From Candidatus Thorarchaeota archaeon (GTDB lineage Archaea > Asgardarchaeota > Thorarchaeia > Thorarchaeales > Thorarchaeaceae), in NCBI GenBank assembly GCA_004524445.1, contig SDNP01000003.1, positions 25,117 to 49,116 of the forward strand: a stretch of DNA of 24,000 bases, written 5' to 3'. Positions within the stretch are counted from its first letter, which is position 1, and every line of letters begins with the position of its first letter. Shown one piece after another: positions 308 to 21,700 of the stretch. Under the pieces are notes generated by a model. That model did not search any database. It was not told where the DNA came from and saw only the letters and a program-made list of their open reading frames with translations. The position numbers were made by a program, and so were the translations under genes.

Positions 308-416
308 TGTTTTACTGTATTTTTTGTGAGTGCAACCGCAATCGTGCGTTTTGGAAAGACGTAGCGTTCTATTTATGAAGGAGAATTTACTTCAAGTAGG
401 CATTGGGCGATTGACT

Positions 417-2330
417 ATGGGTAGTAAACTTCATTCAAAGAATCCGTGGCGGGAGATGGTTCAATCTATCGTAGGAGAAATCGCAGCTGCTGCTAAAATC
501 CCCAGAGAAGAGATTTCGGAGTGTCTTGAAATTCCACCTGATTCAAAAATGGGCGACTTGGCTTGCACCATCGCATTCCAGCTTGCTAAGATTGAGGGGA
601 AAAATCCCGTTCATATCGCGAATGAAATCGCAGAGGAATTACGGAAAGACAAATCGGAGAGTAGCTATATCTCAAGAATCGAGGTAAAAGGCCCGTACAT
701 TAACATCTTTCTAAATAAGGGAATCTTCACAGAGATGGTGCTATCATCAGTTGTAGGGTTAGAGGGAAAGTATGGTAAAACCCAGGAATTCAGCAATAGG
801 CGAGTTATGATCGAGTTTCCCGCGGTCAACCCATCGAAGCCCTGGCATATTGGACATGCAAGAAATGCCGTACTAGGAGACACATTGGGAAACCTTCTCA
901 CCGCGACTGGGCATGATGTCACTCGAATTGACTACATAAACGACCTTGGTCTTCAAATTGCACAGCTAACGTGGAAACTTCTTCAACCCACCCAAACAGA
1001 TGCAGAGGAAAAATACGATTGGTACTTGGGAAGACAATATGTGGATGTTCAGGAGGCTTTCCAAGAAGATCCCGAGGTGGAAAAGGAGGTTCGTGAGATA
1101 GCTCGACAATTAGAGGATTTGAGCTCTAGGGCATCACGAGTTAGTACCGAAATGGTGACCAAATGCGTCAAGGCACAAAATCAGACAGCCTACACCCTAG
1201 GAATATATCATGACTACCAAGTCTGGGAGAGCACGCTCTCCCATAGTGGACTTCTAAGCCAAGCCAAGGAGATGGTGCTTGAAGCAGAGAGTATCTTTGT
1301 GATGGAATCAGGAGAGAAAGAGGGCTGCGTTGTAGCACGATTGGACAGCCTTGATGAATTCAAAGAGATGAAAGACCCATTAAAGGTACTATTTCGGTCG
1401 GATGGTACTCGAACCTATACCGGAGCTGATGTTGCACTCCAAATGTGGAAGTTCGGAATTTTATCCGATCCATTTCGTTATTCAGTATTTGAGATGCAAC
1501 CTAACGGCAAACGAGTCTACAGAACAGCCTTAGACGGAGAAAAGAGAGATTTGGGCACCTTTGACTCCGTGTTTAATGTCATAGGTGCAGCACAAGCACA
1601 TCCCCAACGCCTTATCTACGCCATTCTTGAGCTCCTCGGCTATGAGGAAGAAAGCACAAATTCGCATCATGTGGCCTATGAGTTTGTGGGCCTTGAAGAT
1701 GAGGACTTTTCAGGCAGGAAAGGAACATGGATTGGGTATTCGGCTGATGAGGTGATAGAAAAAGCAAAGACTCTCGCTAAGAAAGAGGTAGCTAAGAGAA
1801 ATCCGGAAGAGGACGAGGAATTCTTCGAAAATGTTGCCTCTAGAATAGCGGCAGGAGCAGTCAGATATTTTCTACTCAATGCTTCACCGGATAGGAAAAT
1901 CACGTTTCGATGGTCTGAAGCTCTGGATTTCAATGGTGATGCTGCGCCGTACCTGCAATATTCACTAGCTAGAGCCCAAAGAATTCTCGAGAAGCAGGAT
2001 ACGGGTGCGAATCAACAGAGAGCATCATCAGTATTATCTGAGGACGCAGAATTTGAATTGGTCAAATCAATCAGCCGTTTGGCAGACGAAATTATAGAGG
2101 TGGTTGACGGGTTGAAGAAGCATACGTGGGGGACCAGTTTCCAGACTAGTCGAATTACTGCTTACTGCTATCAGTTGGCAACGCAGTTCAGCAAGTTCTA
2201 TGATACCTGTCCGGTTCTGCAGGCGGATGAAGAAGTGAAACAAGCGCGATTGTATCTAGTCAAGGCATTCAAAATCGCCATGACCAACTGTCTTCGTTTG
2301 CTTGGAATACCAATCATTGAACGAATGTAG
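417..2330 (+). CDS. argS: Arginyl-tRNA synthetase (class I)
   Basis: The class I HIGH-type signature is PSKPWHIGHARNAVLGD. An ArgRS N-terminal-domain-like KMGDLACTIAFQLAK is present. FSGRKG sits in the position of the KMSKS loop, as in ArgRS (MSTRKG-like). There is a long C-terminal helical anticodon-binding region. The ORF is open from GTG 330. ATG 417 (MGSKLHSKNPWREMV...) gives the N-terminal length expected for ArgRS, and ATG 375 is also possible. Confidence 0.9.
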   Translation: MGSKLHSKNPWREMVQSIVGEIAAAAKIPREEISECLEIPPDSKMGDLACTIAFQLAKIEGKNPVHIANEIAEELRKDKSESSYISRIEVKGPYINIFLNKGIFTEMVLSSVVGLEGKYGKTQEFSNRRVMIEFPAVNPSKPWHIGHARNAVLGDTLGNLLTATGHDVTRIDYINDLGLQIAQLTWKLLQPTQTDAEEKYDWYLGRQYVDVQEAFQEDPEVEKEVREIARQLEDLSSRASRVSTEMVTKCVKAQNQTAYTLGIYHDYQVWESTLSHSGLLSQAKEMVLEAESIFVMESGEKEGCVVARLDSLDEFKEMKDPLKVLFRSDGTRTYTGADVALQMWKFGILSDPFRYSVFEMQPNGKRVYRTALDGEKRDLGTFDSVFNVIGAAQAHPQRLIYAILELLGYEEESTNSHHVAYEFVGLEDEDFSGRKGTWIGYSADEVIEKAKTLAKKEVAKRNPEEDEEFFENVASRIAAGAVRYFLLNASPDRKITFRWSEALDFNGDAAPYLQYSLARAQRILEKQDTGANQQRASSVLSEDAEFELVKSISRLADEIIEVVDGLKKHTWGTSFQTSRITAYCYQLATQFSKFYDTCPVLQADEEVKQARLYLVKAFKIAMTNCLRLLGIPIIERM

Positions 2331-2331
2331 T

Positions 2332-3678
2332 CTATCCCGACGTAATCCTTGCCGTTTCTAGGACGACGCTTGGACTCTTGATTGAAAATGTAGTGCGAGT
2401 ATCAGCTCCAACAAGAGATATTCGCTTCAACAAGTCCCGCATGTTTATTCCAATAAGGGTATTCTTCAGAGGGTGTTGAATTTCGCCGTTCTCAATATAT
2501 GACCCCTCCATAATCATTGCACTCAGCTCCCCCGTGGTCATATTGGGGCGATCTGCGGTATTGCGACAAAGAACGCCTTGATCAATCTCTGAAATCAGAT
2601 CGTCAACTGTTCCGTGTCCAGGTGCTACAATGAAGTTGGATGTCGATATGCCTGGGAGTCCAGCATATGACGGACGGGTAGCATTTGCTGTGTTATCCAC
2701 TCGGTCCTTGTTTGCAGTATAGGAATTGTGAAGGTAGTTCTTGAGAACTCCCGCTTCCATGATAGATGTCCTCTGAGACCGAACTCCTTCTGCATCAAAT
2801 GGCCTCGAACCGATTCCGCCTTCCAGAGTACCATTATCGGTGATTGTTAATTCAGAAGAACCAATCATTGAACCAATATCATCAGAAACATATGACCGAC
2901 CATATTGGATTTCCTCTGCGTCAAGTGCGCCTGCAAATCCCAGACCAATTATAGAACTGACCGCAAGAGGCGTTAGAATGACGGGTAGCATACCCCCCTC
3001 AATTGTTTTTGGTCCCAGATTAGCTAAGGCAGACTTCGCAGATTCCTCTCCAACCCAATGGGGGTCAATGTCATTCATCTTTCTCGTTACTTGGAATTCA
3101 TATCCTGATGTCTGCTGCCCAGATTCCTTTATTGTGGGATATGTATACAAGTACGCAATCGTGCTCTTGGTACTACTCTCAATGCCTAGCGAATTCACAA
3201 TAGCTCTTTCATTGATCCGAATTGTTATTTTCCCCTCTATGGCGGGATTTCTTCCATCAAGAACGTTAAGTGCCGAGTCAACTGCTGCAATCATCAACTC
3301 TGCTGCCTCGTCAGCATTCACTTTACTCATAGTCGAATCAAATAGTCCGGAGATAGTAGGATAAGAACTCTGCTCGTAGGGAAGTGTAACAAAATCAGGG
3401 TCCGGAATCGAGTTTTTTGCAAGCTCAGCAGACTTTCTGCCTGCAGTAGCTACTTCCTTGGGGTTAAGATTGGTTACATAAGCAAATCCAATTTTCTTGT
3501 CTACTATTGACCGAATGCCACAACCCTGATCTAAGCTATCCTCTGCTCCTTTTACTGCGGAATTCTCTACCTCGATTTGAAAGGACTTGGTAGAGGATAC
3601 ATATGCTTCCGACTGTTGAGCTCCTTCCTTCTCGGCAACGCGAAGGGCTTTATTTGCCACATCGTAGAGGGTACTCAT
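2332..3678 (-). CDS. pmbA: PmbA/TldE-family protein (partner of the TldD metalloprotease)
   Basis: The family pattern includes GCGIRSIVDKKIGFAYV and SRPFDAEGVRSQRTSIMEAGVLKNYL. The C-terminal region reads SAMIMEGSYIENGEI...LIGINMRDLL. The protein has no HExxxH motif. Its ATG abuts the tldD stop codon (TAG-ATG junction at 3676-3681), indicating one operon. Confidence 0.85.
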   Translation of the reverse strand: MSTLYDVANKALRVAEKEGAQQSEAYVSSTKSFQIEVENSAVKGAEDSLDQGCGIRSIVDKKIGFAYVTNLNPKEVATAGRKSAELAKNSIPDPDFVTLPYEQSSYPTISGLFDSTMSKVNADEAAELMIAAVDSALNVLDGRNPAIEGKITIRINERAIVNSLGIESSTKSTIAYLYTYPTIKESGQQTSGYEFQVTRKMNDIDPHWVGEESAKSALANLGPKTIEGGMLPVILTPLAVSSIIGLGFAGALDAEEIQYGRSYVSDDIGSMIGSSELTITDNGTLEGGIGSRPFDAEGVRSQRTSIMEAGVLKNYLHNSYTANKDRVDNTANATRPSYAGLPGISTSNFIVAPGHGTVDDLISEIDQGVLCRNTADRPNMTTGELSAMIMEGSYIENGEIQHPLKNTLIGINMRDLLKRISLVGADTRTTFSIKSPSVVLETARITSG

Positions 3679-5103
3679 CTACATCCCTCCAACGGGGACA
3701 TTACGAATTCGTGCATGTGGGCCTCCACTCATATCGGGAACCACTTGACCACCTTTTCCACAGTTTCCTGCGTCCAGTTCAAAATCAGATGCGATTCCGT
3801 CTACCTTTGCCAGAATATCTAGGATGTGACCTGCAATAGATACATCTCTCACCATCTGGCCGACATCACCATTTTCAATCAAATACCCATGGCTTGCCTG
3901 GAACATGAATTGACCCTTTGCCGGTTCAGTATAACCATAATTGAATCTACAGAGCAAAATACCGGATTCTGTGTCAGCTATAAGTTCATCTACGCTCCAA
4001 TCACCGGGTTCCATGTAGGTATTACTCATTCTAGGAATTGGAGGGTGCATGAACGATTGTGCTCGAGCAGCACCATTGGCGCTCATATCAAGCCTGGAGC
4101 TGGTTTCCAAATCATGCAGCAATTCTGTGAGAACTCCGTCTTTGACTAAGGTCCGTTTTTTGGCTGGAGTTCCTTCCCAATCAAAATCGAAGCTTCCTCG
4201 CTTCCCAGACAATGTCGGATTATCAGTGATATTCAATTGTTCAGGACCTACTGCCTTTCCAACTTTGTCTTCAAGAACAGTGGTATGTGCGGGCCAATTG
4301 TCAGCCTCACAAGCATGGCCAAATGCCTCGTGAACCATCACACCATTGAGAACTGGATCCATGACGACATCGGAAACCCCACCAGGTGCCGCCTCTGAAG
4401 AAAGCAAATTAATGACAAGCTCTGCAGTTGACAATCCTATTGACTGCGCCGCTTCGGATTCAGTGAACTCAAATCCGCTTCTGACACCTATAGAGTTGTA
4501 AGCCCGTCTCCGATTTTTCCCATCCTTGGCAGTCAATGAAGAAATGATTCTTGGCAGTGAGTTTTCGGTGTATATGGAAGTCCCAAGTGAATTTGCAACA
4601 TAGAGCTCAGTTTCGAGGTCACCATATATAGTGCGGGTGTTAACAATCCGTTCATCATATGACTGTGCTTGGTCATCAATATCCTTAGCAAAATTGATTT
4701 TGTCTTCAAAGTGGATGTCTGAAAATGGAAGCTTGACTGAAAGCGGAGCTCTAGCCCGATTTGAGGTGCCATCTATTTCGAAATGGGCAGAAACCTTCTC
4801 TCGCGTAGCTAGTGCTAATTTCGCAACTGATGTCCCGGCCTTCTTCATGCCTCTCCTAGTCAGGTCTGTGGTTTGACTGAATCCCCAAGAGCCATCAACA
4901 AAAGCTCGTATTCCCGCACCCTTTAGATGAGCAGCAATAGACCGTTTTGTGACGCCATCATTGATTTCAATGATTGTGGTTTGAGTATCTTCCAAACGAA
5001 TATCAACAAAGTCGATGCCCTCGTTTAGAGCAGCAGCAATTGCCGCGTTGGCCAAGTCCTCCATTTTGGTATCGTCCTGCTCTTCGTTTGCAGGACCTGA
5101 CAT
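3679..5103 (-). CDS. tldD: TldD-family Zn metalloprotease
   Basis: The HExxxH motif is present in VHEAFGHACEAD. Further TldD-like motifs are FDFDWEGTPAKKRTLVKDGVL and GNCGKGGQVVP near the C-terminus. The start is placed at ATG 5103 (MSGPANEE...), with ATG 5064 as an alternative. The longer ORF to 5457 has a non-protein-like N-terminus and would overlap the divergent gene at 5211. Confidence 0.88.
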   Translation of the reverse strand: MSGPANEEQDDTKMEDLANAAIAAALNEGIDFVDIRLEDTQTTIIEINDGVTKRSIAAHLKGAGIRAFVDGSWGFSQTTDLTRRGMKKAGTSVAKLALATREKVSAHFEIDGTSNRARAPLSVKLPFSDIHFEDKINFAKDIDDQAQSYDERIVNTRTIYGDLETELYVANSLGTSIYTENSLPRIISSLTAKDGKNRRRAYNSIGVRSGFEFTESEAAQSIGLSTAELVINLLSSEAAPGGVSDVVMDPVLNGVMVHEAFGHACEADNWPAHTTVLEDKVGKAVGPEQLNITDNPTLSGKRGSFDFDWEGTPAKKRTLVKDGVLTELLHDLETSSRLDMSANGAARAQSFMHPPIPRMSNTYMEPGDWSVDELIADTESGILLCRFNYGYTEPAKGQFMFQASHGYLIENGDVGQMVRDVSIAGHILDILAKVDGIASDFELDAGNCGKGGQVVPDMSGGPHARIRNVPVGGM

Positions 5104-5210
5104 TATAACTAATTCGCACTGTGCAGTTGGTAGTGCTAGTATTAGCAGAATAATACACACGTTATTCTTAGAGTATTTTCCTAGTAACGTGATAAGTCGG
5201 AGGCCCGTAT

Positions 5211-6770
5211 TTGACAAAAGGTTCACCATCGAATTATTGTAGCCTTTGTGGCGATAATCGTTCAACGCATATGTGCGAGGACTGTGGTACTTTGCTATGC
5301 ACAAATTGCCTTGATACGAAGTCAAGTGAGTACACAATGTGCGCAGAATGCCACCATAACCTTGGAAGGATTCCAACGGGCGAAGAACCGAAAACATGTT
5401 CTGAGTGTGACTCAGAGAGCTTTGTAACGGCAAAACGCATTGAGGAAATATGTCCAAAATGCTACTCGACTCGAATTGTGGGAATTGAAGAAAAACGAAG
5501 AGCGCTAGCTCACGAACTGCGAAGTGCAGTAATGAACATTCATTACGGTCACACTAAACTTAGAGAGTTCAATGCTAGGCTCGCTTCCGCGAAGAGAATT
5601 CTTGTTTCATTGAGAATGGCGAATTTTCTTGGCTTCAAGTGGTTTGAAGATAGGATTGAACAGATTCAAGACGAGTTCATAGCTATCAAGAACCGTGTTA
5701 CAAATCAAGCAGAGATAGTAGCAAAGAAGATGCTCGCAGAAACAAAAGGTCTCATAGATTACCAAGCATGGGAGACTGGTCAATTTCCGTTTGTTGAAGG
5801 TGTAACCAACCGTGTAAGCCATATCGGACGACAATACAAGAGCAATATTGATGACGCACTCCATGGATTGGAATTGGATTTAGGTGAACTGACTGAGCAT
5901 CTAGAAGGTCTTGATTACTATAGAAAGCATTTCGCAGGATTTTACGAGTATTCAGATCTATCAGTGAACGAACTTCCTGTGTGTGCGATTCCCGAAATCA
6001 AACTAAGCGGGAGCGACTTCCTAAAACACGACAAGGCTACAGGAATACTGTATATCACAAATAAGCGATTAATATTCATTGCAGAAACTGGCATGGTACG
6101 CAAAAAGACAGAGGTCGTATTTGACTTCCCGTTAGTCTACCTAAAATCTCTGGAAGAAGATGGGAGGTTCAGGAAGCGTCTGGTATTGAAGCTAAAACAG
6201 GGCGATGTACGAGTTGATTGTGACGAACAAACAGAACAGGTTCTCTCAGACTACATACAGATTGCAAAGAAGTTTGATCGGTACGTGCAAGATGATATGC
6301 ACCGAGTACGAAAGATTGAGGCGACCAGTGTTAATGTCAGCGATGTGAGACTGAAAATCGAGGAACTAGTTTACTCGATTTTATCCACTAATCAGCCAAG
6401 CAAAATCCCCGAAACAAAGAGAGGGTACTATGTTCCATACCAGGACCAGGAAAGGCAAAGATGGAACCCACAAAGTAGATACCAGACAAAGCAGAATTAT
6501 GAAGACGAATTGGCTGAGGAGCTCAGGAGGACACTCGGCCATCGAAATGGCAGACGAAGAAGTCAGGGATACGACCTTGGTCTTGAACAATTGAGGAGAA
6601 ATGAGCGAGAACTCCAATCCGCTCTCTCTGAAACTGTCGACCTACTTCGAAGTGGAAGAATAGTACCTGAAGACTTCATAAGAAGATACAGAGGCCTCAT
6701 GCGGGACTCATATAGTATCAGAAAAGAACTAGAGCACTACAATGGTAATACTGAATACCACAAATGGTGA
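5211..6770 (+). CDS. ESCRT-I-like protein: Zn-finger modules, helical region, GLUE/GRAM-like PH domain, Tsg101/Vps23-type stalk and steadiness box
   Basis: The TTG start has GGAGG at 5199-5203 with a 7-nt spacer. Residues 10-49 read C-x2-C-x8-C-x2-C-x4-C-x2-C-x10-C-x2-C-HH. Residues 63-84 read C-x2-C-x14-C-x2-C. Residues ~255-355 contain GILYITNKRLIFIAE...FDFPLVYLKSLEE...RLVLKLK, a PH/GRAM/GLUE-like pattern. Residues ~456-510 (RELQSALSETVDLLRSGRIVPEDFIRRYRGLMRDSYSIRKELEHY) resemble the TSG101 C-terminal steadiness box as recalled from memory. The gene is embedded in the ESCRT cluster. Confidence 0.65.
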   Translation: MTKGSPSNYCSLCGDNRSTHMCEDCGTLLCTNCLDTKSSEYTMCAECHHNLGRIPTGEEPKTCSECDSESFVTAKRIEEICPKCYSTRIVGIEEKRRALAHELRSAVMNIHYGHTKLREFNARLASAKRILVSLRMANFLGFKWFEDRIEQIQDEFIAIKNRVTNQAEIVAKKMLAETKGLIDYQAWETGQFPFVEGVTNRVSHIGRQYKSNIDDALHGLELDLGELTEHLEGLDYYRKHFAGFYEYSDLSVNELPVCAIPEIKLSGSDFLKHDKATGILYITNKRLIFIAETGMVRKKTEVVFDFPLVYLKSLEEDGRFRKRLVLKLKQGDVRVDCDEQTEQVLSDYIQIAKKFDRYVQDDMHRVRKIEATSVNVSDVRLKIEELVYSILSTNQPSKIPETKRGYYVPYQDQERQRWNPQSRYQTKQNYEDELAEELRRTLGHRNGRRRSQGYDLGLEQLRRNERELQSALSETVDLLRSGRIVPEDFIRRYRGLMRDSYSIRKELEHYNGNTEYHKW

Positions 6771-6771
6771 C

Positions 6772-7395
6772 TTATACGCCGAGCTCTTTCTCCAATGATT
6801 TAATCGCTTCTTCTAATTCCTCTGCCTCAGTCATCGGGCGCCCCGATTTGGCAGAGGCTTCAACTTGGGCTGCGGCCTCGATTTCTCTCATGGCCTCATT
6901 TAATTCTTCTGAGGTCACCTCAGCTTCGGTTGTGGAATCGAAAGCTTCGCCCGCAATGCCGCTCTCAATTTCAAACTCCTCCAGACGCATGGCGATCTCG
7001 TCTGCATTTTCGATTACTTTGGATGTATCCGTGGCATCTCCGAGAAGACCCAATATATCTGCTACGTCATCAAGAGCTTTAGATGCCTTTGCAGTGGTTT
7101 GTGCTCGAGTTACATGAGCTAATATCTTCAAGATTTGAAGACGCGACTTGTCAATTGAAAGAGCGAAACGTCTGAACCTCACCATTTCTTGTGCATAGGT
7201 TCGAAATGCTTCCGTGTTTCCGTTCTTTCGTGCCTCGATTGCTCGCGCCTTCGTATCTCGTTCTTCCTTTTCCAACTTGTTTCTCTGTCGTTCAAGCTGC
7301 TTTGATAGAACGCGAAGCTGACTCGTAACTTCGTTGATATCAGGCTTCTTTCGTCCCCATGAGAAGGCTTTCTTGAAGATACCCAATCTGTTCAT
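6772..7395 (-). CDS. ESCRT-III subunit (Snf7/CHMP family, probably Vps2/24/46-like)
   Basis: The 207-aa protein has a basic N-terminal helical hairpin (LRVLSKQLERQRNKLEKEERDTKARAIEARKNGN...) and an acidic C-terminal half. It ends in an amphipathic helix, EELEEAIKSLEKEL, that is MIM1-like. It is transcribed divergently from the Vps4 gene. Confidence 0.85.
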   Translation of the reverse strand: MNRLGIFKKAFSWGRKKPDINEVTSQLRVLSKQLERQRNKLEKEERDTKARAIEARKNGNTEAFRTYAQEMVRFRRFALSIDKSRLQILKILAHVTRAQTTAKASKALDDVADILGLLGDATDTSKVIENADEIAMRLEEFEIESGIAGEAFDSTTEAEVTSEELNEAMREIEAAAQVEASAKSGRPMTEAEELEEAIKSLEKELGV

Positions 7396-7397
7396 CC

Positions 7398-7420
7398 TGA
7401 AGAAGCAAGATTCTTCTTCA
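7398..7420. repeat. Perfect 8-bp inverted repeat immediately upstream of the ESCRT-III start codon
   Basis: TGAAGAAG (7398-7405) and CTTCTTCA (7413-7420) are separated by 7 nt. The nearer arm is 2 nt from the ATG (7395-7393, minus strand). Confidence 0.5.
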
Positions 7421-7586
7421 ATTTGAATACTAAGGATGCCATTTTAACACTTCGCCGTTATCCAAAAGGCGGCTGTATAAGAAGCGGTAGAGCAACATCT
7501 GAAACTAGATTTTTGAAAACTCAGTAGTTTGTGGGCAATACAGAAGCTCTTAACAACCAATACAGCATTTTTCAGACGGGGTAAAA

Positions 7587-8810
7587 ATGACCGACACGAA
7601 TGGAACTAGGCTCGATAAAGGCTTAAGAGAATTGCTCGACAGAGCTATCGATCTAGATCAGAGGGGGCTGAAGAAGGAAGCATGCCAAAAATACCTGAAG
7701 GCCAGCAAAATTTTGATTAAACTCTCAAATGCAACAAGTCTCCCCTCCGTCCGTAAGCATTACCTCAAACGAGCGCAGGAGTGTGTAGATAGAGTTCGTT
7801 ATCTATCCGGCATTAGGAAGAAGACTCGAGGACCAGAATTCGGCCTCACAAGGCCAGTCACACCAATCCATGATGATAGCCAAAAAGGTGAAATGCCAGT
7901 TACCAGTCCAACTGAAGAGCAAGACGAAGATGAGATACGACTCAATGAGATGGTTTCTGATACAATTCTTTCCGAGCGCCCTGATGTCAAGATGTCAGAA
8001 GTTGCAGGACTAAGCGATGCAAAGCAAGCAATCCATGATGCCATTATATCACCCATGAAACACCCGGAGTTCTTCAAAGGTAAGGCTAGGCAGCCTTGGA
8101 AGGGAATTCTGCTCTATGGACCTGCTGGATGTGGGAAGACACTAATCGCCAAAGCGGTTGCAAACGAAGTAAAAGCCACCTTTTTCAATGTATCAGCAGC
8201 GAATATAGTGAGTAAATGGCTAGGCGAGTCTGAGCGATTGGTTAAACACCTCTTCGATTCTGCGCGTAACAACCAACCATCAGTCATATTCATAGATGAG
8301 CTTGATTCTATAGGGGTTTCAAGACGGGGAGAAGATGTTGGAGGGGAACGAAGACTCAAGACACAATTGCTAACGGAGCTTCAAGGCCTAACAAGCAAGA
8401 GTGGCGAAAGAGTCACACTCATTGGGGCAACAAATCTTCCGTGGGACATCGATTTCGCCTTACGGTCCAGGTTTGAAAAGAGAATTAATGTTCCACTCCC
8501 CGATAAAGCCGCAAGGGTCAGAATTTTCAAAATACATATTGATGACATTGAAGTCGCGCCGGATGTAGACTTCAATGAGCTTGCTGACTTGACAGAGGGA
8601 TACAGCGGGAGGGATATCAGCGTGGTATGCAGAGAAGCCGCAATGGAACCTATCAGAGAATTGCAGAGCGATATTTCTCCATCGGAAAAAGCTTCGTTCA
8701 GATTGAGGCCTGTATCAAGATTGGATTTCCTTAATGCGATTGATAATATTCGCCCCGCAACATCCCCTGAAGACATTCGCAGATACAAAGAGTGGGCGGA
8801 GGGTTCATAG
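7587..8810 (+). CDS. vps4: Vps4-like AAA+ ATPase with an N-terminal MIT domain
   Basis: The N-terminus is a three-helix MIT-like region (AIDLDQRGLKKEACQKYLKASKILIKL...YLKRAQECVDRVRYL). An acidic linker follows. Walker A is GPAGCGKT and Walker B is VIFIDELD. The second region of homology reads TLIGATNLPWDIDFALRSRF. The C-terminal helix is DIRRYKEWAEG. GGGGT lies 4 nt upstream of the ATG. Confidence 0.92.
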   Translation: MTDTNGTRLDKGLRELLDRAIDLDQRGLKKEACQKYLKASKILIKLSNATSLPSVRKHYLKRAQECVDRVRYLSGIRKKTRGPEFGLTRPVTPIHDDSQKGEMPVTSPTEEQDEDEIRLNEMVSDTILSERPDVKMSEVAGLSDAKQAIHDAIISPMKHPEFFKGKARQPWKGILLYGPAGCGKTLIAKAVANEVKATFFNVSAANIVSKWLGESERLVKHLFDSARNNQPSVIFIDELDSIGVSRRGEDVGGERRLKTQLLTELQGLTSKSGERVTLIGATNLPWDIDFALRSRFEKRINVPLPDKAARVRIFKIHIDDIEVAPDVDFNELADLTEGYSGRDISVVCREAAMEPIRELQSDISPSEKASFRLRPVSRLDFLNAIDNIRPATSPEDIRRYKEWAEGS

Positions 8811-8813
8811 TTC

Positions 8814-9530
8814 GTGGGAGTTAGAGAGCGCAAGAAGGAGAAAAAGGAAAGCAAAGAAGAAGCTCGTTCAGAAGAAAAATCAGCTGAATCAAAAACCGAT
8901 GAAATAACAGAGCAAGAAGTCCAACCGCTTGAAGGACCCAGTACTACACAGAAAGAAGACAAAACGACGACTGAACCTGAATCACGCACTCAGGTCGTTG
9001 AAGAAACACCTGCCGAACGAGAGATGCTGTTGCCAACATGGGGCAGTGTAAATGAGTATGAATTGATGTACCATATACCTACTGGAGAAGACGACCGAGA
9101 TCTCTGGGCAGATGAATGGGGAGATTTCCTCTTGGAGTGGGCACAAAAGAACACGGCACATAAAATATCACTAGTAACTTTCATCACTGAACAACCATTC
9201 TCCGATATATTTGGAAAAGTGAAGGCATTCCGTCTGATAGCAGAAAAACTGGTTGACAAAGATGTGGCTGAATGGGTTGGAAGGAACAAGGGGCAGCTTC
9301 GGATTTACTGGAGACCCATAGAAGATTGGGCAGATATCATCTATGCATGGTCTATTGAAACAGGTAAGACTAGGTTGGATGTGAAGACACTAGTAATCCA
9401 AGAAAGCAGCCAGGATTTTGCAAGTCTGCCTGAAGATGAACTCAAAACCATCCTGGGCATTCTGGTGGAACAAGAACTCGCTGAATGGGTAGACAAGAAA
9501 CGAGCGGCAATAAGAATTCGTATTTCTTAG
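8814..9530 (+). CDS. ESCRT-II Vps25-like protein with an N-terminal Lys/Glu-rich disordered extension
   Basis: The C-terminal ~165 aa look like tandem winged helices. The Vps25-like opening is DLWADEWGDFLLEWAQKNTAHKISLVTFITEQPFSDIF, and the second winged helix ends LAEWVDKKRAAIRI. The GTG start at 8814 is preceded by GGAGGG (8798-8803) and lies 3 nt after the Vps4 stop. The alternative start, ATG 9024, would remove the charged extension. Confidence 0.7.
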   Translation: MGVRERKKEKKESKEEARSEEKSAESKTDEITEQEVQPLEGPSTTQKEDKTTTEPESRTQVVEETPAEREMLLPTWGSVNEYELMYHIPTGEDDRDLWADEWGDFLLEWAQKNTAHKISLVTFITEQPFSDIFGKVKAFRLIAEKLVDKDVAEWVGRNKGQLRIYWRPIEDWADIIYAWSIETGKTRLDVKTLVIQESSQDFASLPEDELKTILGILVEQELAEWVDKKRAAIRIRIS

Positions 9531-9544
9531 GCATAAAGACGGGA

Positions 9545-10348
9545 TTATAAACCATGAGCCGGGCGAGATTCTCGATTGTTTCTACGTCTATCTAATATTT
9601 CATGATGGTCCTCTTTGTCCGATGCCTTGTGATGTAACCCGGGGAAGTAGTATCTACCGCCGGTACTAAAGCGAATATCAGCGACCGCCATTCCGGCATC
9701 AACCAAACTCGATAATACTTGACGGGCGTGATCTTCAGACCACTTGAGTTCCATCATTACCTCTTCAACGGAGGTATAGCCCTTCGTGGCTGCAAGATTG
9801 ACCACATCAGATTGATCGCCACGTAATTCCAATGGACGAAGCTCGACAACTTTGACGCCTCCCCGAAGTGTTCGTATTCCCGGAATCAATCCGTTTTCTG
9901 CAACCCTATTGACAGCCTCTATCACATCATTATAGCTAACCGACTTAAACTGCGGCACACGATTAACAACCTCAACAATCAGGTCTGCAAGACCCATCAA
10001 TCCTTTTGCCGAGTGTGTCGTGGCAACGTCGAGAACCGCCAATCCAAGATGGTCATAATATTCATCCATTGTGTATCCATCTAAGACGGGTCTGGCCCTG
10101 TTTTGGTAAAATTCGATTAATCCAGCTGCGTCTGGAAATTCATCTAAGATTCTTTGCTGTGCCATGAAGCCACCAACATCAATACCCATGCGCCTCATCT
10201 CATCCAAATGCCCTTTCACTTCGCTGACTAACGCATCGGACTCCCGCTGGAATGACCTGATATCAACCGCGCCAAGGTCGTACATCTTCTTGAGTTGATC
10301 TAAGGTAGCTATTGAAGCGTAAAGCTCCTGATGAATATGGTCATGCAT
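9545..10348 (-). CDS. ESCRT-II EAP30-domain protein (Vps22/Vps36-like)
   Basis: EAP30-type patterns include KGLMGLADLIVEVVNRVPQFKSVSYNDVIEAVNRVAENGLIPGIRTLRGGVKVVEL. The second winged helix is ARQVLSSLVDAGMAVADIRFSTGGRYYFPGL, comparable to the eukaryotic ...W.D....E..YWFP.L ending. The gene is adjacent to the Vps25-like gene. Confidence 0.75.
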   Translation of the reverse strand: MHDHIHQELYASIATLDQLKKMYDLGAVDIRSFQRESDALVSEVKGHLDEMRRMGIDVGGFMAQQRILDEFPDAAGLIEFYQNRARPVLDGYTMDEYYDHLGLAVLDVATTHSAKGLMGLADLIVEVVNRVPQFKSVSYNDVIEAVNRVAENGLIPGIRTLRGGVKVVELRPLELRGDQSDVVNLAATKGYTSVEEVMMELKWSEDHARQVLSSLVDAGMAVADIRFSTGGRYYFPGLHHKASDKEDHHEILDRRRNNRESRPAHGL

Positions 10349-10377
10349 CGCCAGATATCCCTTCAGACTGATTTCTT

Positions 10378-10429
10378 GTCTAGTCTAGACTGCTAAACGA
10401 ATTTCGTTGCGTGCTCTCTTAAAAGAGAG
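10378..10429. repeat. Cluster of three short palindromes/hairpins between aspS and the Vps22/36-like gene
   Basis: The first is GTCTAG-T-CTAGAC (10378-10390). The second is AACGAA-T-TTCGTT (10396-10408). The third is CTCTCT-TAAA-AGAGAG (10414-10429). All are perfect 6-bp arms. They lie 30-80 nt upstream of the Vps22/36-like ATG and downstream of the aspS stop on the minus strand. Confidence 0.5.
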
Positions 10430-10534
10430 TATTATTGGGTTCAGGTCCATATTAGCAACATATTCGATTTGAAATATGCCTCTGAGACCAATTTCCAAAA
10501 CCAGAAGCTGAATCGTATTGTATTGGCACGTACA

Positions 10535-11896
10535 TCAAGGTGTGATCCTGTCACGGTCTCTAGGCAGCAGACTAGCCTCTCGGATGTTCTCTATACCAAG
10601 CAACTGCATGGTCAAGCGCTCCACTCCTAGGCCAAGACCGCCATGGGGGGGAGCACCATATTTGAATGGGTCGAGATAGAAAACAAATCGGTCAGGATCA
10701 AAGCCCTTAGCTTTGAATCTCTCAACAAGTAAATCGTAGAGATGGATTCTCTGTCCGCCCGTGGTGATTTCCATTCCCTTGTACGTTAGGTCAAAGCTTT
10801 CGGTCATACCTCCGTCAGACATACTTGGCATTGTGTACGCAGGGCGAAGTTCCATAGGATAATGAGTTATGAATACCATGTCGGCACCGAATTTCTCAGG
10901 AAATATATCTGCAAGCATTCGTTCCGATTCTGGGTCTAGGTCATCTTCCAAGGTAATCTCTTTTCCAGCATCTTGTAATAAGCTGATAACTTCTGCATAT
11001 TTGATTCTCTTGAAGGGTAGTCTAGGAACATTCAGATCAACCCCCAGAAGTTCCAGCTCCCGACTCGCCTCTTGCTTCGTCTTACTAAACGCATGATGGA
11101 GCATCTGCTCTTCCATTTTCATCACATCTTCAACTCCACCAATCCATGCCATCTCAAAATCGAAGGAAGTGTACTCATTCATGTGTCGTGGAGTGTTGTG
11201 TTTTTCAGCTCTGAATACAGGTGCAATCTCAAAGACTCTTCCAAACCCGGCCAAGAGCATAAGTTGCTTGTAGAATTGAGGACTCTGGGCTAGATAGGCT
11301 GGCTTTTCAAAATACTTTATTTCAAAGAGGTTTGCTCCACCCTCTGTTGCTGCTGAAACAATTTTGGGAGTATGTATCTCAGTGAATTCATTCTGTTCAA
11401 GAAACTCACGTGCGAATCTGACCAGCGAGTGCTGAATCCGAAATATGGCATTCACTCTTGGTTTTCGGAGGTCTAGGATCCTGTAGTTCAGTCTCGTGTC
11501 CAGGTCTATGTCGACTTTTCCTTCAACTATATCGATAGGAATCGTTTCTGACCAGTTTAATACGCGGATTTCGGATGGAACAACTTCAGCACCCGACGGA
11601 AGAAAATCTGTCGCAACAACTTCTCCTTTAACGAGCACAGCCGTTTCAGGCTTCAGGTTCTCTGAGATTTCAAAGACTTCTTCAGGTACCCTCTTTTTCG
11701 GGATGGTGATCTGAGTTGTTCCTCGCTCATCACGGAGAATGAGGAATTTTATCTTCCCCTTATCTCTGAGGATATGCACCCAACCAACCAAAGTAACCTG
11801 TTCGCCAATAAGATCCTTTCCTATTTCATACGAATAGTGGTTTCTTCGATCCTTACCTATGGGGCTTACATCTGCCTGTTTGTAATAATCCACCAT
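10535..11896 (-). CDS. aspS: Aspartyl-tRNA synthetase, archaeal/eukaryotic type (class IIb)
   Basis: The N-terminal OB-fold anticodon-binding region reads VTLVGWVHILRDKGKIKFLILRDERG. Motif 2 is FRAEKHNTPRHMNEYTSFDFEMAW. Motif 3 is GGLGLGVERLTM. GAGGA lies 6 nt upstream of the ATG. Confidence 0.92.
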   Translation of the reverse strand: MVDYYKQADVSPIGKDRRNHYSYEIGKDLIGEQVTLVGWVHILRDKGKIKFLILRDERGTTQITIPKKRVPEEVFEISENLKPETAVLVKGEVVATDFLPSGAEVVPSEIRVLNWSETIPIDIVEGKVDIDLDTRLNYRILDLRKPRVNAIFRIQHSLVRFAREFLEQNEFTEIHTPKIVSAATEGGANLFEIKYFEKPAYLAQSPQFYKQLMLLAGFGRVFEIAPVFRAEKHNTPRHMNEYTSFDFEMAWIGGVEDVMKMEEQMLHHAFSKTKQEASRELELLGVDLNVPRLPFKRIKYAEVISLLQDAGKEITLEDDLDPESERMLADIFPEKFGADMVFITHYPMELRPAYTMPSMSDGGMTESFDLTYKGMEITTGGQRIHLYDLLVERFKAKGFDPDRFVFYLDPFKYGAPPHGGLGLGVERLTMQLLGIENIREASLLPRDRDRITP

Positions 11897-13941: not shown

Positions 13942-14277
13942 ATGGCCAAAAGCAGCATGACAAAATTAGGAGAACTTCTAATACTCATTGGAGGCATTGT
14001 AGGCCTCATATATGGAATAGCAGCTGTGCTCTCATTTCCGCTCTTCGATCCCATTGGCTTGGGATTAGCAGGAACATTGGGTAACATTATTGGTGGGATA
14101 ATACTGATAGTTGTTTCACTTGTAACGTTGGCTACGAGCGGAGTTATTGATATACCTGCCCTGAAATTGGATAAGAGCTGGATAGTACTTCTGGTCCTAG
14201 GAATTCTGATCTACATCTTTGGTTCTAGCTTAGGTGGAATTCTAGTAATCATTGGAGCTATTCTATTAGCTCTATAG
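13942..14277 (+). CDS. Small integral membrane protein (3-4 predicted TM helices), paralog of 15777..16133
   Basis: The protein is hydrophobic and Gly/Ile/Leu-rich. An AGGTGA Shine-Dalgarno motif lies 7 nt upstream of the ATG. The C-terminal half (ATSGVIDIPALKLDKSWIVLLVLGILIYIFGSSLGGILVIIGAILLAL) aligns with AISSSLIELPISKSQEWIPLLLIGLLMYFLGGTLGGLLVIMGSLLKLI in the 118-aa protein. Confidence 0.7.
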   Translation: MAKSSMTKLGELLILIGGIVGLIYGIAAVLSFPLFDPIGLGLAGTLGNIIGGIILIVVSLVTLATSGVIDIPALKLDKSWIVLLVLGILIYIFGSSLGGILVIIGAILLAL

Positions 14278-15776: not shown

Positions 15777-16133
15777 TCAAATCAATTTCAATAGAGAACC
15801 CATGATGACCAGAAGCCCTCCCAGTGTTCCACCAAGGAAGTACATCAATAGACCAATCAACAGAAGAGGAATCCATTCCTGACTCTTAGAAATTGGCAAC
15901 TCAATCAATGAACTTGAGATGGCGAGGGTAATAATTGACAGGAATATCAACAGAACCCCTATTCCCAAACTCGTCAGGCTGCCTAAGATATTTCCAAGCT
16001 CAATCGTTGGGAGAAATCGTAGCCACCTGCCAAAATTCATCAGGTAGAGAACCCCATGTAATCCCGTGAGAATGGCACCAAAGATAACCAAAAATCTCGA
16101 CAGTCTATTGGTGTCTTCCAAATTGTCTGACAT
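15777..16133 (-). CDS. Small integral membrane protein, paralog of 13942..14277
   Basis: The 118-aa protein has the same TM layout and shares the motifs LGNI(L/I)G and LGG(L/I)LVI(M/I)G with the 111-aa protein. Confidence 0.65.
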   Translation of the reverse strand: MSDNLEDTNRLSRFLVIFGAILTGLHGVLYLMNFGRWLRFLPTIELGNILGSLTSLGIGVLLIFLSIITLAISSSLIELPISKSQEWIPLLLIGLLMYFLGGTLGGLLVIMGSLLKLI

Positions 16134-16148
16134 GGTACCAGTCCAAGG

Positions 16149-16517
16149 CTACTTCCTGAACATTAAGAGGATTCCAGCCAGAAGGATCATGAATCCAGCA
16201 AGAGTGCCCAGATTAGTTAGCCAAGATATGATGTTTATGTCAAGGCCCCGTACGACAATAACAATCGAAATGAACCCAATTAATGCAAGCACTACCCCTG
16301 ATTTCTCAAACTTGTAATTTATGAAACCACAAGCGTCGAATGCCAATACAACCATTATGATGAGGGCAATTCCCAAAATGACATCGATTAGAGCATCTAT
16401 GTCTCCTGCTGCCGCATTATTCAGACCGCCAAGAACCATTTGCACTGCAAAAATTAGTAACACTACTCCGCCCAACACTGTATATCCTTGAGCGGCTCCT
16501 ACTGCCTTAAGACCCAT
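16149..16517 (-). CDS. Small integral membrane protein (4 predicted TM helices), possibly distantly related to the two neighbours
   Basis: The 122-aa protein is hydrophobic. A GAGGAT Shine-Dalgarno-like motif lies upstream of the ATG. The gene is 15 nt from the downstream membrane-protein gene on the same strand. Confidence 0.6.
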   Translation of the reverse strand: MGLKAVGAAQGYTVLGGVVLLIFAVQMVLGGLNNAAAGDIDALIDVILGIALIIMVVLAFDACGFINYKFEKSGVVLALIGFISIVIVVRGLDINIISWLTNLGTLAGFMILLAGILLMFRK

Positions 16518-18767: not shown

Positions 18768-21700
18768 CTAGAAGAAATCATCCAATGTTGTGATTCCTAA
18801 GAGGCTATCAAAATCAATTCCCACTGATTCCAGGACCTGCTCGAAGACTGATCTCAATGTATCTATATACTTCTGCTTATCCAACCAGTATTCTCCCTGA
18901 TTTGCGAGCACTACAGGTAGCACCCCGTCCGCATCCTTTGTCTTAATATATTCAATGATAGTCCCACCCTCAACTTCATGCCCAGCGTCTTCCATCATCA
19001 TTGCTGCTCTCACATGTTGTGGCAGGGTAGTACCATATTGAGAGATGGGTTTTGTCATCTGGATACGGAACGCAAGTTCTTCAGGGGAATAGGGTTCAGC
19101 TTTCCCCTCAAGTCTATCGATTACGCAGTTCACGATTTCGCGGATTTCATCCTTAGCTACTTCAAATCCTTCAGGGCTGTCCACATGAGCTAAGACTTCG
19201 AGCATTTCCCGGAATGCTTCTTGAATGAATTCGGGCGTGTTCCTCTTTTTGCCACTGAGCCCCTTTACCTCAACATAACCAGAATCATAGACCCCAATGT
19301 AGTTCTTTTTGCGATCTGAGAGAGCAACATACTTGTATGTCTTCTCCACTTCCAGGTCTATCTCCAGTTCTTGTCGTGACCATTCAATGAGCTGTCGTTG
19401 TTGTTCTTCTGTTGGACTATCAAGGAAAACTGAGTCAGTGTCCCCATACAATACTCGCACGCCCATGGACTCGGCCTTCTCTTTGGTGCGAATAATTGCG
19501 TCTCGGCCATAGGCAGTAACGCTCTCGGCAGCGGGCATACAGAACAGCTCGAAGTGTTGGGCCCCTGTCACACCATAGCTATTGTGAACTACAATTCCGT
19601 TGGTCGATACAAACAACCCATTCCCAGTTTCCAAGTCGTAGGTTTGTTCAGAATGGTCACTCTTTTGTATCGAGCGAATCCTTACTGCATGTGTGCCATT
19701 AAAATCAGTCAATCCTCGGCCCGTTCGCCGATACTTTAGCCCTTTGCTTTCCACAATACGATACATTGATTCTTCGCGATGAACAGATGCATGTTTCCCA
19801 AGTGCGGCTAACAGGTAAAGAATGTCATAAGCTAGTTCTTTGCTCGATGTCGAATATCGCCTAGCACCGCGAGTATTGATATTCCCATCGCCCTTGAAGA
19901 ACGAATCTAGAACAATGCCTGCTCTCTCCTTATCAAGGAGGTGAATTGGGATAGATTTGTTCCGGGACCTGTTACCACAGAGGGATTCCATGACTGCTGC
20001 AAGTATTTTCGAGTGAATGACATGGTCCTTCTCCGAATATATCGCAAAGGGCAGTTCCATCCGTTGTAAGAGGGTTCCGATCTGCTTGAAATAAGTAGGA
20101 TTGACTTCCTGATACTGTGAAATCGACACCCGATTAACGCCCACATGTCCTTCAGAAAGATACCAGCCCATAAATGCGAAGAAATCTTCATCAAGCTTAA
20201 TTCTGATGTTTTCCCATTTGCCGGCCTCACGCCATCTACCACTGCTTTCAATCAGTTTTAGGTAGAAAGGTGGTGCACCTGATTCGTGTTCTCTAATCAT
20301 ATTCTTGGCTTCTGCGGATAGGTCATTCCATCGTGCGCGATACCACCTGCTAGCCTTTGAATATCTGAATTCTTCGTTAATTAGTGAAATCAGAGGGTTC
20401 TCTGTTCGTTGGGAACGTCGATACGAGAACTTTGTGTAGTCTTTTCTTCTTATTCCGACATGAATGGATTCCTCAGGGATGACGTCCGGAATGAATAATG
20501 TTTCAGGAGGTCTTGGTGAAAGCGGAGTCTGCTCCAGCATGAGGAGATTATCGTCTATCCGGAGATCTTCGGCCGCAACATACCGGATTGAGAGAGGCTT
20601 CTTGGCAATTGCCTTTCGGTTCTTCCGTGTGTTTTTGGGAAGGAGTTTCGGCAAGACATGGTTGACCGTGCATCGGATAGTGCGTCCGTCTCGGAGGCAG
20701 ATGTTGAGAATTGATGCGGGTCCATTCTTCCGAAATCCGACAATAGGAACGAATACTGGTTTTCCAAAGGATGAAGATTCCCATTCATTATCAATGCTTA
20801 GAATCTCAAGATTGCGCCATTCATCTTCTAAGCTGCCAATAGGTTTCTTCGATACAAGACCTTGGGAATCCCGGACCACTACTTCTTCGTTGAAAGGAAG
20901 ACAGGCATTAACGAACACCTTAAGCGCTTTCTCGACAACTGAGTACCAGTTTCGTAACCCTTGATTTAGATTTGTGTCCTTGCTCTTTCCCTTAAACCAT
21001 TTGACTCGGGTATCTCGAAAGAAGCCGATAGTCTGACTAATCATGCCGACATTCTTCTTGCATGTCCAATGATCTGTTTCAGGCACTCGATTGTCCTCTG
21101 CCTTCTCACAGGATTCATGGGGACAATCAACTGTTTCATAACTGATATTGTGTGTCTTCATTATTGTGGGATAGAGACTGGCAAAGTCAAGAACTGTGGC
21201 TCCAAAATGCACTCCCGCCACTGGCTCAATAACAATAGCACCTTTGAATGCCTTGTCCTTTATCATGGCCTCAGTGTGAGCATCACTCGATTTCAGTTCT
21301 CGAATCTCGCGTTGTTTCGGAATCAAGGCATTTCGTGAACGATGCTCCTGCCGAAAGAGCGATTGAATCCATGTTGATATTCCAAAGCGAGTCACATCTT
21401 CCATTGATAAGCGGGAAATTCGCATTAGAAGAACGATGAGCCGTAGCAGTAGATTTTCATTGTATTGAGTGACTCTCAGCGTTATATTGGAGTCTAGCCA
21501 GCAGTAGTGAGCTAGTTCATAATATCCAAGTCTAGAAATCTCGTCGCTTAGCTCAAGTTTGCCTACATTAAGAAGACCTTGCCCGATGGATTCGAGATTG
21601 TTTCGCTCATATGCTCCTGAAAGCGCATACAATCGAACTGAGGGGTTCTTGAGGAACCTGTAGAGGTCAATGTGGATACCACCGTCAAGCAGTGCGATGT

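Follow-up and report, generated by a model that had tools for sequence, protein, structure and literature searches.

A Thorarchaeota protein with zinc modules, a PH domain and a steadiness-box-like hairpin is a probable ESCRT-I-like adaptor encoded beside ESCRT-II, ESCRT-III and Vps4 genes

We analyzed a stretch of 24,000 nucleotides from a Candidatus Thorarchaeota archaeon (GenBank assembly GCA_004524445.1, contig SDNP01000003.1, positions 25,117 to 49,116 of the forward strand; hereafter the window, whose own numbering is used throughout) and focused on a gene at 5211–6770. Its 519-amino acid (aa) product carries zinc (Zn) modules, a helical region, a pleckstrin homology (PH) domain and a C-terminal helical hairpin resembling the steadiness box (SB) of Vps23/TSG101. 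[quoted passage not shown] In effect, a single polypeptide unites a Vps36-like head (PH domain and Zn fingers) with a Vps23-like assembly element. An original prediction, made from the DNA sequence alone, had read the gene as a Vps23-type ESCRT-I core with a Vps36-type PH domain, an interpretation that was partly supported, being right in substance and overstated in detail.

The architecture corresponds to that of an Asgard-specific family, Znr_CC_PH_SB (also Znr_PH_CC_SB; asCOG cog.011556), which was described computationally and proposed as a likely ESCRT-I component with a PH domain that would be expected to associate with the membrane (Makarova et al., 2024, mBio, PMC10936438). The three Zn modules, the coiled coil between Zn and PH, the PH domain and the C-terminal SB of that family are all found in our protein, which shares with it an apparent restriction to Asgard archaea and a location beside ESCRT-III. 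The Thorarchaeota protein, with 519 aa, is shorter than the 650-aa one of Lokiarchaeum GC14_75. The gene for that Lokiarchaeum member (As_004-p_01543, cog.011556) has a Vps20-family gene at a distance of 1.2 kb (PMC10936438). Our protein thus matches as the Thorarchaeota member of Znr_CC_PH_SB, the match being one of described architecture and not of alignment to a named cog.011556 sequence. Because the correspondence is feature for feature, the architecture itself was already known computationally, and a literature search found no experimental study of the family beyond that computational work. Minor additions made here are the conserved TTG start, the truncated public annotations, the C-terminal Trp and the SB-like N-terminus of the neighboring Vps22.

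To define the distribution of the family we used two kinds of search. A word-indexed search returned 165 relatives, nearly all from Thorarchaeota, at 46–89% identity. An exhaustive profile search of 1.84 billion protein representatives returned 122 with E ≤ 1e-3, many of them 600–900 aa long, and the family appears to be restricted to Asgard archaea. The named members belong to Lokiarchaeota, Sigynarchaeum, Jordarchaeia and 'Promethearchaeota', and the Lokiarchaeota, Sigynarchaeum and Jordarchaeia proteins (484–690 aa) match the Thorarchaeota profile with E values of 1e-39 to 1e-55.

An AlphaFold2 model built on a 28-sequence alignment (mean predicted local distance difference test score, pLDDT, 80.5) arranged the protein in the order Zn modules, coiled coil, PH domain, linker and SB. 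The features of the gene, all on the plus strand, are as follows.

5199–5203, plus strand: Shine-Dalgarno-like GGAGG, 7 nucleotides (nt) 5' of the TTG start, read directly
5211–6770, plus strand: coding sequence of the Zn/coiled-coil/PH/steadiness-box protein, 519 aa, TTG start, TGA stop
5238–5357, plus strand: eight-Cys two-zinc module, residues 10–49, C-x2-C-x8-C-x2-C-x4-C-x2-C-x10-C-x2-C-HH
5397–5462, plus strand: Zn ribbon C63-x2-C66-x14-C81-x2-C84, residues 63–84, four invariant Cys, beta-hairpin in the AlphaFold2 model
5484–5951, plus strand: helical/coiled-coil region, residues 92–247, AlphaFold2 pLDDT mostly 85–97
5976–6284, plus strand: PH-like domain, residues 256–358, of the GLUE/GRAM/bacterial-PH group, from the AlphaFold2 model
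6396–6569, plus strand: variable Q/R/Y/P-rich linker, residues 396–453 (about 58 residues), low confidence, predicted disordered
6573–6755, plus strand: steadiness-box-like helical hairpin, residues 455–515, from AlphaFold2 and family profiles
6756–6767, plus strand: C-terminal tail, residues 516–519, whose final Trp (W519) is conserved, from orthologue comparison

The model was checked for a PH beta-sandwich and a C-terminal helical hairpin, and both are present. Residues ~90–250, which had been thought to look helical, form three long helices (92–136, 144–178 and 189–247), for which no significant family match was found. Further helices at 363–391 lie between the PH domain and the linker. 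The linker has pLDDT values below 50 at 396–426 and 443–453, with a short low-confidence helix at 428–442, and is poorly conserved and indel-rich in the Thorarchaeota alignment.

The C-terminal hairpin (helices 455–480 and 486–515, pLDDT ~95) was compared with the steadiness box of TSG101 at the level of family profiles, and these comparisons support remote homology between the two. The C-terminus of the human TSG101 query was confirmed by database matches of 98–100% identity. An hhalign comparison of a 49-sequence family C-terminal profile with the TSG101 SB gave a Prob of 84%, P = 7e-6 and a score of 30.9 over 56 ungapped columns, against a mean of 8.9 and a maximum of 15.6 in 150 column shuffles and a score of 8.5 for the reversed profile. 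When the TSG101 SB profile was run along the full-length family alignment, the sole credible match was the hairpin (P = 2.5e-5; next P = 0.11). Matches to Pfam Vps23_core (PF09454) were obtained for 4 of 28 Thorarchaeota members and 13 of 51 diverse members, with a best E value of 7.2e-6, and always fell at the extreme C-terminus. The Thorarchaeota C-terminal profile had 13 matches in the PDB, among them yeast Vps23 (2p22_A, E = 0.052; 2f66_A, 0.083; 2caz_A, 0.18) and human TSG101 (6vme_B, 1.3); the Vps23/TSG101 matches share the same register and none is individually significant. Weak matches to Mod_r/Vps37, Mvb12 and CdvA also occur, and Vps23 orthology is not separable from a generic SB. 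No Pfam match to a UEV/UBC domain was found in the protein or in the family members scanned and the N-terminus consists of Zn modules, in agreement with the idea that Zn modules and a PH domain stand in place of the UEV head.

The central domain is a PH domain of the GRAM/GLUE/bacterial-PH type. In the AlphaFold2 model it forms a seven-strand sandwich (256–336) capped by a helix (339–358). The original prediction of a split PH domain of the GRAM/GLUE kind therefore holds for the fold, but the domain is contiguous and not split. All Foldseek matches of the full model in the PDB were PH-containing proteins, and the best single-domain matches included the PH-like domain of Lam6 (5yqr), the GLUE domain of human EAP45 (2hth_B, TMt 0.59) and the PH domain of yeast Vps36 (2cay_A, TMt 0.52). 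The top matches of the full model, to DH-PH RhoGEF proteins (E to 1.4e-4), were rejected; they superposed poorly (root-mean-square deviation ~20 Å, TM-scores 0.18–0.37) and we therefore read them as a generic helical bundle beside a PH domain. On its own, the protein matched Pfam bPH_3 (E = 0.0078) and GRAM (0.094), both below threshold. Among the 51 family members, bPH_3 was matched by 26 (best 4.8e-7, 30.6 bits, over the 23-bit cut-off), GRAM by 10 (best 4.7e-5) and Vps36_ESCRT-II (PF11605) by 4 (best 4.3e-5; highest score 24.0 bits, in P0179, against a cut-off of 24.1 bits). The family PH profile had six matches among all PDB sequences, with yeast Vps36 at the top at marginal E values (2cay_A, 0.017; 1w7p_D, 0.056) and PH domains of the bacterial and GRAM kinds after it. 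Compared with vertebrate GLUE domains by hhalign, the PH profile gave a weak signal (P = 0.005, score 20.8, shuffle maximum 18.9), which reproduced the VPS36 GLUE register of the original prediction, pairing GILYITNKRLIFIAE with GTLLLSTHRLIWRD. These comparisons are suggestive of a specific GLUE affinity, which is unproven.

The Cys spacing reported for residues 10–49 and 63–84 is exact in the translation (C10, C13, C22, C25, C30, C33, C44, C47, H48, H49, C63, C66, C81 and C84). The 12 Cys, which make up six CxxC pairs and three predicted Zn sites, are invariant across 21–28 Thorarchaeota homologues, and over 51 diverse family members, with a mean column identity of 17%, each is conserved to 90% or more, which argues that the spacing did not arise by chance. 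In the AlphaFold2 model residues 10–91 form beta-hairpin Zn modules, including a hairpin at 71–80/87–94 in the Zn ribbon region. For the eight-Cys module there are two candidate topologies, a cross-brace of the B-box/FYVE kind and a pair of sequential Zn ribbons. The cross-brace is favored by matches to Pfam zf-B_box (PF00643; E = 0.002 and 18.7 bits for the protein against a cut-off of 24.1 bits, best 7.9e-6 among relatives, a few of which have a precomputed PF00643 match) and to the ANCHR-like B-box (8 family members, best 6.5e-6, highest score 26.6 bits for a cut-off of 27 bits). Sequential ribbons are favored by equally strong matches to Pfam DZR over residues 30–84 (21 of 28 Thorarchaeota members, best 2.8e-6) and by the modeled beta-hairpins between C33/C44 and C66/C81. 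A separate AlphaFold2 model of residues 1–95 (pLDDT 79) had no significant Foldseek match in the PDB, and none to a B-box, RING or FYVE domain (best E = 0.2). Thus the Zn modules that had been called a B-box-type cross-brace are present, but the cross-brace was not distinguished from three sequential Zn ribbons. The top PDB sequence match of the full-length profile was the FYVE domain of ZFYVE19/ANCHR (1wfk_A, E = 0.02). ANCHR is a VPS4-binding abscission-checkpoint protein; the resemblance is weak and may be coincidental. In Znr_CC_PH_SB the Zn modules were described as ribbons (Makarova et al., 2024, PMC10936438).

The gene is followed by a cluster of further ESCRT genes:

6772–7395, minus strand: convergent ESCRT-III gene of the Snf7 family, 207 aa, Pfam Snf7 E = 4.6e-8, 1-nt gap to the stop of our gene
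7587–8810, plus strand: Vps4, with Pfam MIT, AAA and Vps4_C domains
8814–9530, plus strand: Vps25-like ESCRT-II subunit, Pfam PF05871 (ESCRT-II/Vps25) E = 4.9e-13
9545–10348, minus strand: Vps22-like (EAP30) ESCRT-II subunit, Pfam EAP30 E = 8.8e-14 over residues 92–224

The tail-to-tail arrangement with ESCRT-III was confirmed, our gene ending at 6770 and the Snf7 open reading frame (ORF) beginning at 6772. To survey this linkage across genomes, GTDB species representatives were scanned by means of the Thorarchaeota alignment, which reaches Thorarchaeota-type members only and returned 74 loci, essentially all from Thorarchaeota (including AB_25 and SMTZ1-45). A convergent Snf7 gene lay within 400 nt of our gene in 66 of the 67 eligible loci, and Snf7, Vps4, Vps25 and EAP30 were all present in 54 of 55. 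The order ArgRS-PmbA-TldD-[our gene]-Snf7-Vps4-Vps25-Vps22-AspRS (330–11896 of the window, ~12 kb) is kept in almost every species representative from Thorarchaeota, the exceptions being one rearranged locus (L075) and one with no Vps4, Vps25 or Vps22 nearby (L045). More informative are three distant Asgard relatives with 17–28% identity and unrelated flanks, in which a Snf7 gene is still nearby: one locus has two convergent Snf7 genes (L078), one has Snf7, a second Snf7 and Vps4 (L080), and in the third Snf7 lies 4.3 kb away (L079). Linkage to ESCRT genes is thus conserved both within Thorarchaeota and in these relatives.

In the Vps22-like protein ~90 residues precede the EAP30 domain, and residues 3–58 of these (ELYASIATLDQLKKMYDLGAVDIRSFQRESDAL..., nt 10175–10342, minus strand) resemble the SB hairpin of our protein. 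A profile of this N-terminus from 59 orthologues matched the family SB in hhalign with P = 3.4e-4 and a score of 23.7 (shuffle maximum 16.4); compared directly with the TSG101 SB it gave a score of 15.2, which is within the shuffle range and not significant. The Vps22-like N-terminus is therefore a candidate SB-SB partner. This would fit the published fusion of Asgard Vps22 to an SB (Makarova et al., 2024, PMC10936438) and the interaction of a Lokiarchaeota SB protein with Vps22 in a yeast two-hybrid assay (Hatano et al., 2022, PMC9192718). Residues 1–70 of the adjacent Vps25-like protein (8814–9020, plus strand) form a Lys/Glu/Thr-rich N-terminal extension that is probably disordered; an extension of ~70 residues is also found in Thorarchaeota orthologues, with low sequence conservation.

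Several observations weigh against assigning the protein to an ESCRT-I-like role. Scanned alone against Pfam, it matched neither Vps23_core nor Vps36_ESCRT-II, and all profile matches to eukaryotic ESCRT domains fall under the Pfam curated thresholds; for Vps23_core, the best relative scanned individually reached 23.5 bits (5.6e-05) and none reached the cut-off of 26.8 bits. The case for a steadiness box therefore comes from family profiles and not from the protein scanned singly. A C-terminal profile restricted to Thorarchaeota gave P values of only 0.001–0.007 against the TSG101 SB, and part of the excess in the hhalign scores may be generic, since hairpins of helices are widespread and the periodicity of a helix is lost once columns are shuffled. 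BLASTP of the protein against human TSG101 found nothing at the C-terminus, so we dropped the claim of an 'almost residue for residue' match between residues 456–510 and TSG101. One of the two pairings first proposed, of RELQSALSET with EELSSALEKM, was not collinear: RELQSALSET pairs with ENAIEDTIFY in SB helix 1, QSALSETV aligning with ENAIEDTI of the TSG101 SB. The other, of LLRSGRIVPEDF... with ALRRGVIDLDVF..., was recovered in register by hhalign. No long stalk helix adjoins the hairpin in the AlphaFold2 model and an ESCRT-I-like stalk geometry is not evident; the proposed Tsg101-type stalk fails because the long helices at 92–247 precede the PH domain, which together with the disordered linker separates them from the hairpin. 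Finally, linkage in Thorarchaeota alone is not specific to ESCRT, as the whole ArgRS...AspRS block is syntenic. Relative to Vps23/TSG101, then, the protein shares a remotely homologous hairpin and is encoded with ESCRT-II, ESCRT-III and Vps4 genes, but it has no UEV domain or proline-rich region, its hairpin is not contiguous with a stalk helix, and it bears Zn modules and a PH domain instead.

Three other explanations were considered for the same data. As the tightest and widest linkage is to ESCRT-III (convergent in 66/67 Thorarchaeota loci, adjacent in L078 and L080), the protein could act in the manner of CdvA, the ESCRT-III recruiter of Crenarchaeota/TACK archaea, with its PH domain on the membrane and its hairpin or aromatic tail binding ESCRT-III directly, for example in cell division, without an ESCRT-I/II-type assembly. 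CdvA is likewise a membrane-binding adaptor (a predicted property in our protein) encoded beside ESCRT-III and Vps4, and the coiled-coil/hairpin elements are weakly similar: the Pfam CdvA coiled coil was matched by 3 of 51 members (including P0125, residues 441–504, E = 0.014), and HHpred similarity of the CdvA hairpin to the SB has been reported (Makarova et al., 2024, PMC10936438). The C-terminal Trp is also reminiscent of a terminal docking peptide. Of 71 Thorarchaeota orthologues, 52 have it as their final residue and most of the remainder have W or Y at one of the last three positions, and distant Loki-type members often terminate in aromatic motifs such as ...YFS, so that the tail may be a candidate docking motif. 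We nevertheless consider direct recruitment unlikely. Neither the protein nor its family has a Pfam PRC-barrel match, whereas Zn modules and a PH domain set it apart from CdvA; there is no sign of an E3B peptide with a winged-helix partner, the neighboring Snf7 protein (207 aa) having the Snf7 domain as its one Pfam match and showing no winged-helix extension for a CdvA-type E3B peptide; the CdvA matches are weaker than those to Vps23_core; and ESCRT-II genes are co-located in 54/55 Thorarchaeota loci.

The protein could instead substitute for Vps36, which is missing from the Asgard ESCRT-II of Vps22 and Vps25, as an ESCRT-II accessory that supplies a GLUE-type PH/Zn head and docks on Vps22 by SB-SB pairing. 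The yeast Vps36 GLUE domain as top PDB sequence match of the PH profile, the GLUE structures among the best Foldseek matches, the Vps36_ESCRT-II matches and the resemblance of the Vps22 N-terminus to the hairpin all agree with this, as do Vps22 homodimers replacing Vps22/Vps36 (Hatano et al., 2022, PMC9192718). The GRAM-like PH fold also carries the GxLxLTxxRLxF motif in the same register as Vps36/EAP45 GLUE and is associated with Zn fingers, compare the NZF fingers of yeast Vps36. However, the GLUE signal is marginal, not clearly above bacterial PH or GRAM, and bPH_3 matches are commoner and stronger. The PH domain has no splitting insertion, the Zn modules are N-terminal CxxC-pair modules and not NZF inserts, and the protein has no EAP30 winged-helix domains, EAP30 being a separate gene (9545–10348). 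We regard such a substitute as quite improbable, and it departs from an ESCRT-I-like adaptor mainly in name. Lastly, a Zn-finger/PH protein unrelated to ESCRT, such as a regulator or a B-box/RING-like factor, might owe its position to inherited synteny. This would be compatible with the syntenic block, with the sub-threshold ESCRT-domain matches and with some relatives being labeled just 'B-box zinc finger protein', 'PH domain-containing protein' or 'transposase-like protein', but we find it very hard to credit, given that distant relatives with other flanks still lie beside Snf7 and Vps4, that many members independently give SB and GLUE-like signals at the positions where these are expected, and that the family is apparently Asgard-only.

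The proposed TTG start at 5211 with its GGAGG motif was borne out by comparison with related genes. Homologues of ~520 aa align with the protein from residue 1 and keep the first CxxC. Among 77 related loci, 59 have TTG as the codon that aligns with 5211, 11 have ATG and 6 have GTG; nearly all carry a GGAGG-type motif at a similar offset upstream. A start at ATG 5271, which is codon 21, would lose C10 and C13. Conservation of the non-canonical TTG suggests that a weak start codon and low expression have been selected for. A database protein of 100% identity (EU537_01775, from a Candidatus Thorarchaeota metagenome-assembled genome) is annotated as a 'hypothetical protein' of 477 aa; this length implies a start at Met43, which cuts off three of the six CxxC pairs. 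Several relatives are annotated from Met21 ('MCEDCG') and likewise lose conserved Zn ligands. This copy and many relatives are thus labeled 'hypothetical' and are often called from an internal ATG that removes the Zn ligands. A mechanically called minus-strand ORF at 3679–5457 (592 aa) overlaps the start of the gene, and was rejected as an over-extension: TldD/PmbA homology fills 3682–5067 and orthologues are 461 aa long, indicating that the two genes do not truly overlap.

Elsewhere in the window, an intein that carries a homing-endonuclease domain of the LAGLIDADG type (Pfam matches to Intein_splicing and LAGLIDADG_3, at about residues 728–1109) interrupts a family-B DNA polymerase (18768–22907, minus strand, 1379 aa). 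Three small predicted membrane proteins of 111–122 aa (13942–14277, plus strand; 15777–16133 and 16149–16517, minus strand) are very hydrophobic and Gly-rich and have no Pfam match. A ...GGxLGGxLVIxG... motif at the C-terminus is common to two of the three, and these two may be paralogous.

As an ESCRT-I-like adaptor, the protein would bind membrane and/or cargo through its GLUE/GRAM-like PH domain, which has conserved basic residues, and possibly through its Zn modules. Its C-terminal SB hairpin would pack against partner SB hairpins, such as the Vps22-like N-terminus and any Vps28-like or free-standing SB proteins encoded elsewhere, to form a helical bundle resembling a headpiece, through which the adaptor would be coupled to ESCRT-II (Vps22/Vps25). 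ESCRT-II would then nucleate a polymer of the adjacent ESCRT-III, which Vps4 would remodel. Thorarchaeota have been reported to be without ubiquitin (Hatano et al., 2022, PMC9192718), and an adaptor lacking a UEV domain fits that report. A wider joint reading, which we hold to be rather doubtful, would make the Asgard Zn-finger and GLUE-like PH head the source of the eukaryotic Vps36 GLUE domain, with the Thorarchaeota protein, in the absence of ubiquitin and UEV-Vps23, docking directly on the SB-like N-terminus of Vps22 as a minimal ubiquitin-independent ESCRT-I/II supercomplex, the TTG start keeping its dosage low and the C-terminal Trp serving as an extra docking motif.

The family bears on how the eukaryotic ubiquitin-ESCRT sorting pathway arose from archaeal components. 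It is a candidate ancestral link between the recognition of membrane or cargo and ESCRT-II/III, and would be especially relevant in Thorarchaeota, which reportedly do without ubiquitin.

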